Part shown: positions 1,744 to 5,774 of the stretch, piece by piece
Position numbering within the stretch: position 1 is the first letter of the stretch
How the letters are laid out: the number at the start of each line of letters is the position of its first letter
Assembly: GCA_965116885.1 (NCBI GenBank)
Contig: OZ220741.1
Coordinates: forward strand, 224,001-288,000
DNA from: Candidatus Latescibacterota bacterium
GTDB taxonomy: Bacteria > Latescibacterota > UBA2968
Reading direction: 5' to 3'
DNA length: 64,000 nucleotides
Position numbers and translations under genes: made by a program
Notes under the pieces: model-generated
Told to the model about the DNA's origin: nothing
The model's database searches: none
The model's input: only the letters and a program-made list of their open reading frames with translations

Positions 1744-3054
1744 ATGAAACATCTGCAAATGCGTATTTTCTCTATCGCCCTATTTCTGTGCTTATGCACA
1801 ACCGCTTTTGCCCAACCCAACATTGGGGAAAAAGTAAGCGAATTTCAGCTCCAGGCCCTCGACGGCAGGTTTTATGGCATCAGTCATTCGACTAATACCG
1901 TCTCCGTTCTCTTTTTTGTCGGCTACAACTGAGGAACTTGCATAGGGGCGGGTCCCGCCTTTGAACAAAATATCCACCAACGCAACAAAGATAAAACCGG
2001 CGTACAGATCCTCACACTCGACAGATACAATGGCAACCGCGCACAGGCGCAATCCTATGTGACACAAGCCAGGGTAACGACGCCCATGCTCACCAATGCC
2101 TCTGGCGTCTCCCAAACCCTCGGCACTCGCAACGAAGATATCCTCGTCATCGATCAGGGCGGCATCCTGCGCCTTAGAGCCACAGCAATCGCCTCAGGCT
2201 CTCATGACCTGATCAACGCCCAAGTCGATGCACTACTCAACAAAACGCCTATTATTACCCTATTCCCATCAGAGATCTACTTTGGCAGAACCCTTGAAGT
2301 GGGGCAATCCAAAACCGTAGAATTTAAAATCGAAAACACCGGTGCAGGTCCGCTCGAAATCACCGGATACTCGGCTCCCGAAGGCATCACAATGGAGCCA
2401 TCCACATTGACCATAGCGCCCGGCGAAAGCAAAACCGTACAAATCACCCTGACGCCAACTCAGGCCGGCACATTGTCGGGCAAAATCACCCTCCAACACG
2501 GCGAACAGAGTCTTGGCACACTGGAAATACCCGTACTCGACCTCACCATCGAAGCGCCCCAACTCCCGGTCATTTCGCTGGTTCAGGAAAACTTGAGCCT
2601 GGGTGAAATCGAAGTGGGCAAAGACGTCACTACAACATTCACCATCACAAATACTGGCTCGGGTCCACTCACCATCACAGACATCCAATCCAACATCGCG
2701 GGCATTGCATTTTCAGAAACCCAATTAACAGTGCCACCCGGTCAATCCCAAGACATCACCGTGACTTTCAGTCCGCCAGCCGAAGGTCCCATCACCGGCA
2801 CCATCGACATAACCTCAGACGACCCTGAAAAAGCCTCACTCAGTCTGTCAATCACCGGCTCGGCCATCTTCATCCCCGCTGATCCACGCACCGACTTCGA
2901 CGGTTCGCGCACCATTGACTTCTCGGACTTCCTCTTGTTCGTAAGTGCCTTTGGCACGACCGATGCAACCTTCGATCTCAACGGATCCGGCACTGTTGAC
3001 TTCTCCGACTTTCTCATATTTGTCGCGAACTTTGGGAAAACAATCAACGGATAA
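1744..3054 (+). CDS. Probable secreted selenoprotein: signal peptide, AhpC/TSA-type redoxin with UxxC motif, two Ig-like (choice-of-anchor D/ASH-type) domains and a dockerin/EF-hand-like C-terminus
   Basis: ORFs 1744-1932 and 2059-3054 share a frame, separated only by TGA at 1930-1932: VLFFVGYN-U-GTC-IGAGPAFEQ. A SECIS-like hairpin lies 11 nt downstream. IxNTGxGPLxIT occurs twice and DFDGSRTIDFSDFLLFVSAFG-like repeats end the protein. Confidence 0.85.
1944..1962 (+). promoter_or_regulatory. Candidate bacterial SECIS element
   Basis: AGGGGCGG-GTC-CCGCCTTT stem-loop with G in the loop, starting 11 nt after the in-frame UGA. Confidence 0.65.
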
Positions 3055-3063
3055 AATCCACCT

Positions 3064-3123
3064 GTAGGGACAACCCCCCGTGGTTGTCCCACCTTCGGGC
3101 GGGCACAGGGGCACCGCCCCTAC
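3064..3123. repeat. Inverted pair of GTAG-type REPs; the right one is family A (GGGCGGGCACAGGGGCACCGCCCCTAC)
   Basis: GTAGGGACAACCCCCCGTGGTTGTCCC followed by the family-A 27-mer, which recurs at 15249, 23816 and 50656. Confidence 0.8.
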
Positions 3124-3192: not shown

Positions 3193-3882
3193 ATGTCCCA
3201 CCGCCAAACGTTCATCAACGCATTCAAACGCATCCTCGAAATAGCGGATCACGACCATCTCTATTTGCCCTTTCAACGCGACAGCAAATTGCGGGCAAAA
3301 CACTTTCCCGGCGCAGGGTCTAAAATCGGGCGAAAAAAACTCATCGACGCATATCTCCTTGAATTTGGCGGCACCTACCCCGATGAAAAATTGCTCCAAC
3401 ACGCCACCTATCCCTGGATTCACGGGTACGACGCCAGCCTCACGCATATTCTCGATGACCTCCGAAAATACAAAAAAAAAGCTCCCGTCGAACTTCCTAC
3501 GGACCGAAGACGCGCACTCGAAAAGAAATTTACCCGCACGGGAGCCGAAGAAATCTCTGCCTTCTGGAGCGTATATGCCGCCGCCGACAACAGCTATCGC
3601 AAAAGCGTCATAGAAATGCTCGCCCGCGTCAAACCGCCCGAAACGGCCCCTCCGACCATAAAGCCCACAACGCGCGACGCCTCTCAAATCGAACCCACCA
3701 CACAGTCGGGATATGCTTTGATGGGCGCGCTTATCTTCTTTGTCCCCACCCTTATATTTACTATAATACAATATTGGCGACTCCCAAATGAAAGCCACTA
3801 TATCGCCTTATCAATCGCTGGATTTTTTGGGATAGTCACACTCGTATTTCTCATCGACTACTTGCGTAAACGCAACACATGA
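3193..3882 (+). CDS. Hypothetical protein with two C-terminal TM helices
   Basis: ~229-aa ORF, Pro/Thr-rich linker, two hydrophobic stretches; its stop overlaps the next ATG. Confidence 0.7.
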   Translation: MSHRQTFINAFKRILEIADHDHLYLPFQRDSKLRAKHFPGAGSKIGRKKLIDAYLLEFGGTYPDEKLLQHATYPWIHGYDASLTHILDDLRKYKKKAPVELPTDRRRALEKKFTRTGAEEISAFWSVYAAADNSYRKSVIEMLARVKPPETAPPTIKPTTRDASQIEPTTQSGYALMGALIFFVPTLIFTIIQYWRLPNESHYIALSIAGFFGIVTLVFLIDYLRKRNT

Positions 3883-5774
3883 CCACAATGAACAAAGGCA
3901 CCTACCCCCGGCCCCTTCCTGAGAGGAAGGGGAGAAAACCTACCATCCCTCGCTTCTTGCCCTTCATCTGCGTCCATCTGCGTCATCTGCGGATAATGAT
4001 CTCCACCGTCCTCTTTCTCACCCTCCCGCTTCACCCCTCGGCAGCCCCCCTCCAGATCGGCGACAGCCTCAATGATTTCGCCCTTGCCGACCTCAACGGC
4101 TCGCCCGTTACCCTCAGTGATTTATCTCAGAACCGCGCACTCGTCATCATCTTCAGCTCCATCGTCTGCCCCGCCTCGCTAAAATACGACATACACCGAA
4201 CACAAATACACGAACAGTATGCCTCCAAAGGTGTACACCTGATATCTGTAAATGCCAACTTTAACGAAACCGACAAAGACATCAAAGAACACCACGCCCA
4301 AAACCCCGTACCCTTCGCTGTCCTGCGCGACCCGCACAACAAACTCGCCGATCATCTCGGCGCAACACATACCCCCCATGCCTTTCTCTTTGACGCCCAA
4401 CGCCGCCTGCGCTACAAGGGCGAAATCGACAACGGCTGGGGCATACCCGAAGACACGACCTCCCGCGGATTGTGGGACGCCCTCGATGCACTGCTCGCCA
4501 ACCGCGAAATTATCAACACCAACCTGCCCAGTTTTGGCTGTGAAATCAGACGCACACCCCGGCCAACAACTGTGGCCAACACCTCCTCCCCAACATTTTA
4601 TCGCGACATCCTGCCCCTGCTCCAAAACCGCTGCCAGAACTGCCATCGCCCTGGCGGTATCGGTCGCGTACCCTTTTTCGACTACACAGAAGTACTCGCC
4701 TGGGCCTATCAGATGCGCGACTCCATCGAAGCCCGCATCATGCCACCCTGGAAAGCGCGCCCGGAATACGGCGACTTCAAAAATTCCCGCAGACTCACCG
4801 ACGCCGAAATACACACCTTCGCGCAATGGGTCAACAGCGGCATGCCAGAGGGCGATCCCTCCGACCAGCCCGAACCTCTCACATTTTCCAAAAGCTGGAC
4901 CCTGGGCACGCCCGATCTGATCCTCGAACCCGAAGCACCCTATTCACTCGAAGCCGTGGGGCGCGATGAATACCGTTGCTTTGTCTTACCCACAAAACAG
5001 GATACAGGCAACTACGTATCGGCCATTGAAGTACTACCCGGAGAACGCGAAGTCGTCCACCACGTCAGCGTGTACATCGACATCTCTGGCAAAGCGCGCC
5101 TGCAACAAAAAAACGCATCCTCGCCGGGCTACCCTTGCTTTGGCGGCATTGGCGTGCCCATCTACGAATCCCTGGGCGGTTGGGCACCCGGCAACACCCC
5201 CTTTGTCCTTCCAGAAGGCACAGGCCGCGATCTACCGCCCAACAGCGACATCATACTTCAGATCCACTATCACAAAATTGGTCGCGCCGTAAAAGACCAT
5301 TCTCGGCTGGGAATCTACTTTGCCAAAAAACCCGTCCAAAAACAGCTCAGAGAAGAAGTCATCAACAGCCGTTTGCTCTTCATTCCGCCCAACATCAAAC
5401 GACACAGAGTAACCGGCGCAATCACCATCACCCGCGACCAGCACCTGCTCGGCATCTTGCCGCACATGCACCTGCTGGGCACAGAAATGAAAATAACCGC
5501 AACTTATCCCGACGGCACGCAACACCCCTTAATATGGGTCAAACCCTATGACTTCAACTGGCAAGAAACCTACGTGTACAAAACACCCATCGCACTCCCG
5601 CGCGGTACCCGCATCGCGCTCGAAGCCTTTTACGACAACTCTGCCGACAACCCCCGAAACCCCAACAATCCACCCAGACTGGTGCGATGGGGCGAAAAAT
5701 CAACCGATGAAATGTGTACCGCATTTCTCTATGTCACGCACGACGATGAAAACTTAACAACAGGTAAGAAGTGA
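3879..5774 (+). CDS. Redoxin + c-type heme motif + copper type II ascorbate-dependent monooxygenase-like domains
   Basis: Redoxin N-terminus (DFALADLNG...CP...LRYKGEID), CQNCH, VVHH, PHMHLLG and DEMC copper-site motifs. Alternative start at 3996. Confidence 0.8.
   Translation: MTTMNKGTYPRPLPERKGRKPTIPRFLPFICVHLRHLRIMISTVLFLTLPLHPSAAPLQIGDSLNDFALADLNGSPVTLSDLSQNRALVIIFSSIVCPASLKYDIHRTQIHEQYASKGVHLISVNANFNETDKDIKEHHAQNPVPFAVLRDPHNKLADHLGATHTPHAFLFDAQRRLRYKGEIDNGWGIPEDTTSRGLWDALDALLANREIINTNLPSFGCEIRRTPRPTTVANTSSPTFYRDILPLLQNRCQNCHRPGGIGRVPFFDYTEVLAWAYQMRDSIEARIMPPWKARPEYGDFKNSRRLTDAEIHTFAQWVNSGMPEGDPSDQPEPLTFSKSWTLGTPDLILEPEAPYSLEAVGRDEYRCFVLPTKQDTGNYVSAIEVLPGEREVVHHVSVYIDISGKARLQQKNASSPGYPCFGGIGVPIYESLGGWAPGNTPFVLPEGTGRDLPPNSDIILQIHYHKIGRAVKDHSRLGIYFAKKPVQKQLREEVINSRLLFIPPNIKRHRVTGAITITRDQHLLGILPHMHLLGTEMKITATYPDGTQHPLIWVKPYDFNWQETYVYKTPIALPRGTRIALEAFYDNSADNPRNPNNPPRLVRWGEKSTDEMCTAFLYVTHDDENLTTGKK

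Follow-up and report, generated by a model that had tools for sequence, protein, structure and literature searches.

The window analysed here, a 64,000-nucleotide stretch of a Candidatus Latescibacterota genome, contains a gene (1744–3054, + strand) in which one UGA codon is most likely, with very little doubt on our part, read as selenocysteine (Sec). This reading rests mainly on a homologous column of TGA or Cys codons and on the Sec machinery of the same genome. The predicted product is an exported redoxin with a UxxC active site that, judging from its sequence and that of its relatives, is probably anchored to the cell surface through two immunoglobulin (Ig)-like spacers and a dockerin-like tail.

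One reading frame interrupted by a single TGA

Translation of the window revealed one frame of 436 residues followed by TAA, whose sole internal stop is the TGA at codon 63 (1930–1932, +). This codon lies in the context FFVGYNUGTC (U stands for the in-frame TGA in motifs throughout) and occupies the place of the first Cys of a CxxC, which agrees with the initial annotation, in which two open reading frames had been joined through it. The second UxxC position, Cys66 (1939–1941, +), is invariant in all 38 aligned members and in 149 of 150 database relatives. A Shine–Dalgarno-like GGAGGA (1733–1738, +) precedes the ATG by 5 nt, and orthologues share the layout of the full coding frame (protein P0001). 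Under translation table 11 the frame is split into pieces of 62 amino acids (1744–1932) and 331 amino acids (2059–3054). The same fate in public pipelines had been foreseen, and the databases do hold 62-aa and 322-aa pieces and no joined protein; family members are named there as 'hypothetical protein' of Ca. Latescibacteria or Gemmatimonadota. We also observed short inverted repeats of the GTAGGG...CCCTAC type, which we take to be REP-like, on both flanks of the gene (1670–1720 and 3063–3123). Depth spikes over these repeats in metatranscriptome mapping suggest that they have many genomic copies.

The column holds TGA or Cys in a genome with Sec machinery

The source genome (G000; one contig, 5.56 Mb, 98% complete) encodes SelA (580 bits), SelB (385) and SelD (369), all above model cut-offs, and the tRNA-Sec gene adjoins selD, which itself contains one TGA. 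The genome thus has all the machinery that the Sec reading called for. Among 61 genomes, selA was detected in 57 and the redoxin-domain search found matches in 54.

All 21 same-genus orthologues, that of G000 included, carry TGA at codon 63 with the frame open on both sides, so the codon is neither a sequencing error nor a strain-specific mutation, and the objection raised along these lines failed. The first 50 loci gave 53 distinct sites with 48 TGA, four TGT and one TGC at this column; five strong matches without a stop had been chosen deliberately, so that the count is no random sample. Another 20 sites from further loci were all TGA, one of them with an extra TAG two codons upstream, and one broken copy lacked the motif. 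Combined, the 73 homologous sites with the motif comprise 68 TGA and five Cys codons and nothing else, which is the pattern that the initial annotation had proposed looking for.

When a profile built from the 38 members was run against 168 genomes of the phylum, 116 gave a match. The best 150 of the 202 phylum matches included 143 with one TGA, five with no stop, one with TAA and one with TGA plus TAG, the position of the codon being confirmed only for the loci that were fetched. Conservation of the TGA extends across the genus, family, order and class. Beyond the class, the profile gave weak matches (E 1e-14 to 1e-17), and a search with one divergent member returned two close Latescibacterota loci and 14 weak others. 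Several orthologues terminate at TGA where others terminate at TAA; TGA is therefore an ordinary terminator elsewhere in the genus, and codon 63 does not reflect a genome-wide code change.

Sponge metatranscriptome contigs from two studies span codon 63, with no change there among the differences listed. The runs had been picked by this gene, and the contigs are no proof of transcription and give neither expression level nor strand. The downstream GTG start at 2059 is altered in two of these contigs. Tandem copies of the redoxin gene occur in four genomes (L039, L040, L041 and L044, in G054, G050, G042 and G004, respectively), and Sec and Cys versions stand side by side in three of them. Three family members (P0115, P0157 and P0163) have Ala at the first position (GYNAxVC) and retain the second Cys alone.

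A SECIS-like hairpin follows the TGA

The initial annotation had described a stem-loop with G in its loop starting 11 nt after the TGA. We found this SECIS-like hairpin at 1943–1963 (+), with the loop GUC at 1952–1954; its pairs run from 1943/1944 to 1962/1963 and the Watson–Crick stem begins 11 nt past the TGA. Counted from the U of UGA, G23 and U24 sit in the loop, and we take these two bases to be the SelB contacts in E. coli fdhF. The likeness to the fdhF element extends to the bases themselves: its TGA is codon 140, and GGUC occupies positions 22–25, as here.

Folding and synonymous recoding carry the evidence for this element, and covariation in a fixed register is weak. Dinucleotide shuffling gave modest results, with z −1.04 for 46 nt (27 of 200 shuffles as good) and z −2.01 for the 25-nt core (8 of 200). 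When the same peptide was recoded synonymously in 300 draws, the hairpin of this gene had p = 0.033. Hairpins with position 23 in the loop were present at 48 of 48 TGA sites, with a mean of −9.5 kcal/mol versus −2.6 kcal/mol for synonymous recodings and p ≤ 0.05 at 40 of the 48, in a set in which 20 rows are near-identical orthologues and for which position 23 was selected after the hairpin had been seen. Four of five Cys paralogues also fold a hairpin at the site (mean −4.8; two at p ≤ 0.05). Among 31 less redundant rows, neither pairing nor covariation rose above the shuffled level in the register of this gene (222 and 257 of 500 shuffles), and a register shifted by one base showed a mild excess (10 and 3 of 500). 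Synonymous conservation within the genus averaged 0.94 for stem codons +5 to +9 versus 0.72 for other codons of four-fold or higher degeneracy, a measure that does not discriminate because two other stretches also reached 0.94. The position of the hairpin is kept but slides between subfamilies, and we therefore regard it as support for the Sec reading and not as proof.

A predicted exported redoxin with Ig-like domains and a dockerin-like tail

The first 23 residues (1744–1812, +) form a likely cleavable signal peptide, recognized by eye from a basic start, a hydrophobic core and the junction AFA/Q, and homologues have similar N termini; export of the chain by this route is highly probable. 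Residues 27–163 (1822–2232, +) make up a thioredoxin-fold domain of the AhpC-TSA/redoxin, ResA/TlpA-like type, in which UxxC opens helix 1. Pfam PF00578 scored 25.3 bits against a cut-off of 26, and profile matches in the PDB were 2ls5, 3kcm and ResA. An AlphaFold2 model of these residues, made from 38 alignment rows with Sec modelled as Cys, had a pLDDT of 95.2 and found 2ls5 (TM 0.86), a DsbE and ResA as top Foldseek matches; the ESM Atlas gave generic redoxin clusters only.

Two Ig-like domains follow. The first (choice-of-anchor D/ASH-like, approximately residues 170–271; 2251–2556, +) matched NF012200, PF22544, PF07610 and PF15780, and the second (approximately residues 272–375; 2557–2868, +) was found by Pfam and NCBIfam profiles. 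NF012200 reached 109.7 bits in two stretches against a cut-off of 45, and the proposed fusion of a UxxC redoxin to Ig-like domains thus stands. Relatives range from having no Ig domains to frames of 1,417–1,695 aa.

The 58-residue tail (residues 379–436; 2878–3051, +) contains two EF-hand-type loops. The duplicated motif of the dockerin-like domain proposed earlier is therefore present, but the tail falls just below the family cut-offs (Pfam Dockerin_1, 20.0 versus 22.9; NCBIfam dockerin_GC, 28.4 versus 29). PF00404 matched 27 of 37 family tails at E ≤ 0.01, and the best full-length PDB match was a cellulosomal dockerin (2y3n_B, E 4.8e-9). The tail also matched plain EF-hands, with many partial matches to calmodulin and calcineurin.

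The source genome encodes a paralogue (L058:560-2917, −; G000:C1 ~462680-465040) with a signal peptide, a GWSUTRC redoxin, five Ig repeats and a dockerin-like tail, and its hairpin lies at the same position as in this gene.

An acidic residue replaces the cis-proline

Two motifs mark the family, G-[YHWF]-x-U-x-x-C and D-x-[WY]-[ND]-G, and all 38 members keep the Gly at −3, the U/C and the second Cys. Alignments and column counts place Glu131 (2134–2136, +) where ResA/TlpA proteins have the cis-Pro that precedes strand 3 of the fold and peroxiredoxins an Arg; opposite it in the alignments stand the Pro of ResA and the Arg of a BCP-like peroxiredoxin from the same genome. Among the 38 members this column has Glu in 17, Asp in 10 and His in five, with no Pro seen in any aligned row, and the 150 database relatives have Asp in 123 and Pro in nine. 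According to the accessible portions of two papers, cis-Pro surpasses CxxC in conservation among thioredoxins and CMPs, likely helps substrate binding, may prevent metal binding and is replaced by Arg in peroxiredoxins (PMC2757866; PMC2665069 agrees).

The ResA model was the best match of 30 of the 38 members and gave P0001 16.9 bits versus a cut-off of 170. No NCBIfam selenoprotein model fits, the best E-values among the 38 members being 4.5e-7 (TUGYCR) and 8.2e-5 (WAxxUGC). The PxxxTxxC/U motif and catalytic Arg of peroxiredoxins are absent as well, given the Gly at −3 and the Glu at the Arg place. Because the disulfide-reductase cis-Pro and the peroxiredoxin Thr and Arg are all lacking, neither known chemistry is fully matched: the domain resembles a TlpA-type dithiol protein in fold and motif, yet it falls outside both the ResA/TlpA and the peroxiredoxin families. 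A deiodinase link, hinted at by the Asp-Arg loop of Cys relatives and by a low-scoring model match, was rejected, as hhalign gave a probability of 51% over only 48 columns.

Similarities to known proteins are partial. Extracytoplasmic ResA, TlpA and DsbE (CcmG) share the fold (TM 0.78–0.86), the CxxC-type site and export, which is predicted here, but they have Cys where this protein has Sec, possess the cis-Pro and carry a membrane anchor instead of a cleavable signal and a C-terminal stalk. The best structural match, 2ls5, is a putative disulfide isomerase from Bacteroides thetaiotaomicron that shares the fold of the UxxC domain. The initial annotation noted that UxxC thioredoxin-fold selenoproteins exist, and Table 1 of PMC13188914 bears this out: its 119 families include three such types, from PF00578 ('Prx-like thiol:disulfide oxidoreductase', UxxC/UxxU), cd02966 ('Thiol-disulfide isomerase-like') and PF08534 ('Redoxin family protein'). 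Like our protein, these have an AhpC-TSA/redoxin fold, Sec first in UxxC and a bacterial SECIS just downstream, and two listed representatives have signal-like N termini by eye (deep-Sep supplement rows). Unlike it, the representatives in the accessible part of PMC13188914 are single-domain proteins, none with Ig stalks, a dockerin-like tail or a type IX secretion system (T9SS) tail, and in two of them Pro precedes the last strands where Asp or Glu stands here (compared by eye, unaligned). The OS_HP2/DUF1573 selenoproteins (NF041425; PMC1976440, in the part available) have a related Ig-like domain; however, their Sec lies in a UGC motif of the DUF1573 protein, whereas the Ig domains here contain no Sec and score 60 versus a cut-off of 100. 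Exported bacterial selenoproteins have been described, namely SaoB, SaoC and SaoX (10.1101/2022.07.06.499078, as far as its text was accessible).

Relatives exchange the tail for a T9SS signal

A search of 1.84 billion proteins with the family profile gave, at E ≤ 1e-30, 67 representatives. The 150 best database relatives are mostly CxxC proteins that have a signal peptide and end either in a T9SS-type tail or without one. These unnamed CxxC redoxins with a T9SS type A sorting domain or a lipoprotein-like N terminus, which include P0044 and P0054, belong to the same subfamily by profile score and share the motifs, the acidic residue at the cis-Pro position and signal peptides. They differ in having Cys for Sec, mostly an Asp-Arg loop (Arg in 98 of 150), and a T9SS tail or no tail instead of Ig domains and a dockerin-like tail. 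The T9SS tail was confirmed for two Cys relatives (TIGR04183). To our knowledge, no function has been assigned to these redoxins.

The exchange also occurs among Sec proteins. A different family of the class contributes two Sec members that have, in place of the dockerin-like tail, a T9SS type A sorting domain above cut-off; of 17 other matches in that family, 13 have the same kind of terminal motif by eye. P0001 itself has no T9SS type A sorting domain. In a FastTree phylogeny of 96 rows (38 from Latescibacterota, together with the 50 best and eight picked of 150 database matches), the members from this order formed one clade (SH-like support 0.967), within which Cys forms occur at three positions.

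Dockerin-like, cohesin and T9SS proteins share the genome

SprA is present in the source genome, as are 13 T9SS-tail matches (12 above cut-off) and two Pfam cohesins above cut-off; 60 of the 61 genomes have a Pfam cohesin. The same genome has 70 ORFs with the dockerin-like module, 61 of them with a crude signal-peptide pattern, and 29 module copies elsewhere in it pass the Pfam dockerin cut-off. Of the 70 ORFs, 32 carry the module at the N terminus and 31 at the C terminus, so it is no simple C-terminal sorting signal. A 267-aa protein (L173:2692-3495, +; G000:C1 ~4084190-4084995) consists of a signal peptide, a cohesin-like domain and a T9SS tail, has matches in 54 of 61 genomes, often in several copies per genome in the order, and on its sequence is a candidate anchor for dockerin-like proteins. 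A predicted complex of its cohesin-like domain with our tail and two Ca scored 0.04 versus a mark of 0.32, a value that bears on binding in neither direction. It is one of three cohesin-like domains, which lie at about 1017000, 1020800 and 4084300 of G000:C1. Elsewhere in the genome (G000:C1:1014536-1025574, −; L118 and L119) we observed three tandem large exported proteins (frames of 1,695, 1,250 and 722 aa) with T9SS-type tails. Two of them end in a dockerin-like module, a cohesin and a T9SS tail, and these two could link up with one another to form a surface layer.

PMC7081726, in its accessible part, credits Farag et al. 2017 with cellulosome-affiliated enzymes in Latescibacteria, so this phylum was probably already known to possess cohesin–dockerin components; PMC4454575 contains no cohesin or dockerin terms. 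The duplicated EF-hand-type tail resembles the cohesin–dockerin systems of cellulosomes and of the Clostridium perfringens NagJ type, and the cohesin-like domains of the genome match scaffoldin and NagJ cohesins. In contrast to a cellulosome, the cargo here is a redox domain, and each carrier has one cohesin and a T9SS-type tail in place of a wall-anchored scaffoldin with many cohesins.

When 947 frames from 81 loci were clustered, no redox partner gene emerged among the conserved neighbours, only lineage-local ones (such as the TPR gene and the 233-aa gene) and antisense frames. One DsbD-type membrane domain is encoded in the genome, unlinked to this gene. A promoter scan found two sites versus 1.5 expected. 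Two genes downstream in the window (3879–5774, +), a redoxin domain is fused to copper type II monooxygenase-like domains; this gene is not a conserved neighbour within the flanks examined.

Other TGA candidates in the genome

A genome-wide TGA survey by coding score alone gave 488 candidates and was noisy. A filter for motif plus hairpin gave the following candidates in the source genome, which do not make up a complete selenoproteome. One is an M20 amidohydrolase with the motif GHGUGHN (L070:164-1483, +; G000:C1:2867163-2868482; TIGR01891 above cut-off). Of its 52 matches in 61 genomes, 49 contain one TGA; the codon is at the same column in 20 of 20 loci read, with a hairpin whose loop lies about 36 nt from the U. 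The closest stop-free match is in G059, in which selA was not found (genome 86% complete). M20 amidohydrolases are absent from Table 1 of PMC13188914, and a literature search showed nothing relevant among the entries listed. Further in-frame TGA candidates (L059, L060, L061, L062, L063, L064, L066 and L067) include a deiodinase-like protein (FGSFTUPPF), an exported Prx-like protein (RGYWUPHC), a BCP-like protein (TGGUT), a WASWUGC protein adjoining selD, an ArsC/Spx-like protein, a 93-aa frame with YVYPUP, a member of the UGSC family (above cut-off) and a GCTUNNG protein with no NCBIfam match.

Proposed function and alternatives

We propose that SelB, by binding the hairpin that lies 11 nt downstream, almost certainly directs Sec to codon 63, and that the signal peptide would then, with high probability, take the chain out of the cytoplasm. 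There the Sec63 selenolate would attack an oxidized sulfur or a small oxidant, and Cys66 would close a selenenyl-sulfide that is later re-reduced. The likeliest job of such a site, and one we hold to be fairly probable, would be to protect or repair envelope thiols against oxidants. As a whole, a Sec/Cys redox cycle outside the cytoplasm that guards or repairs envelope thiols, the redox head projecting on Ig spacers, is the reading we moderately favour. The surface location is suggested by the exchange of T9SS and dockerin-like tails and by the cohesin and T9SS genes. Cohesin proteins with T9SS tails in the genome also suggest how the protein may be held: the tail could dock on the cohesin-like domain of proteins with a T9SS signal, placing the redox head on its stalk among about 70 module-bearing proteins, a step to which we give a little less than an even chance. 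Against docking are the scores of the tail below dockerin cut-offs, the occurrence of the module at either end of its carriers and the lack of a T9SS tail in P0001. We are more tentative about the broadest version, which we think doubtful as a whole, of a class-wide Latescibacterota selenoenzyme subfamily with its own chemistry at the acidic residue, displayed outside the outer membrane through cellulosome-like dockerin–cohesin contacts with T9SS-cargo carriers as one of about 70 non-cellulolytic proteins docked on a common surface platform and serving sponge-associated bacteria as an outward Sec redox shield.

The same selenoprotein and redox chemistry could instead belong to a periplasmic ResA/TlpA-like disulfide reductase fed by a DsbD-type membrane protein, its tail being a calcium-binding module or a binder of a periplasmic partner. 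The nearest solved folds (ResA, DsbE and TlpA-like), the preference of most members for the ResA model, the DsbD membrane domain in the genome, the lack of a T9SS tail in P0001 itself and the many short Cys relatives without any sorting tail are consistent with this. However, the cis-Pro is absent, T9SS-tailed members imply outer-membrane export for the family, and Ig stalks of such different length would better suit display, so we consider a periplasmic reductase unlikely. A surface-exposed site, for its part, would not easily be reached by a DsbD-type membrane domain.

We judge it somewhat less likely still that the exported UxxC site is a surface trap or sensor for soft metals (Hg, Cu and Ag) and no redox catalyst. 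The acidic residue stands where a cis-Pro would prevent metal binding (PMC2757866 and PMC2665069, in the parts available), and a case has been made that mercury-like metals are bound by exported Sec proteins (10.1101/2022.07.06.499078, same limit), but no metal transport or resistance gene was recognized among the conserved neighbours, which were clustered as groups; the three Ala proteins lose the first Cys and keep the second; and UxxC proteins with a thioredoxin fold are mostly regarded as redox enzymes (PMC13188914, in its accessible part). That the TGA is a true stop, leaving a pseudogene or two genes of 62 and ~322–331 aa, agrees with the database gene calls and with two broken paralogues in relatives (one with TAA and one with an extra TAG), but is very improbable given a frame that stays open and conserved either side of the codon in all 21 same-genus genomes and in homologues with as little as 25% identity, a column of TGA or Cys codons only, the altered GTG start and a modelled fold that would require both halves.

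UxxC redoxin selenoproteins are already known as a kind, and none of the families in Table 1 of PMC13188914 has the fused architecture. We found no curated model or paper on the Latescibacterota UxxC–Ig–dockerin-like family, in keeping with the earlier remark that this domain combination is not known as a described selenoprotein. Searches of the literature linking a selenoprotein to Latescibacter, dockerin or T9SS, or Latescibacter to cohesin–dockerin, gave nothing on the family among the entries listed, and the portions covered of the deep-Sep (PMC12013277) and BSepDB (PMC13326102) texts and supplements mention no Latescibacterota selenoprotein or dockerin; the BSepDB input list includes Latescibacterota genomes, so members may stand there under a generic family. 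New here are the acidic residue at the cis-Pro/Arg place, relatives that exchange the dockerin-like tail for a type IX secretion signal, and the 70 dockerin-like ORFs with cohesin-plus-T9SS-tail proteins in one genome.

These results bring to light a conserved gene family that stays concealed in public annotation behind 62-aa 'hypothetical' fragments, and they add an exported, possibly surface-displayed member to the bacterial selenoproteins. The natural Sec and Cys paralogues in single genomes offer a ready test of what Sec adds. The same check would show the size of the hidden Latescibacterota selenoproteome, and the exchange of tails may point to a surface-display route in this phylum.
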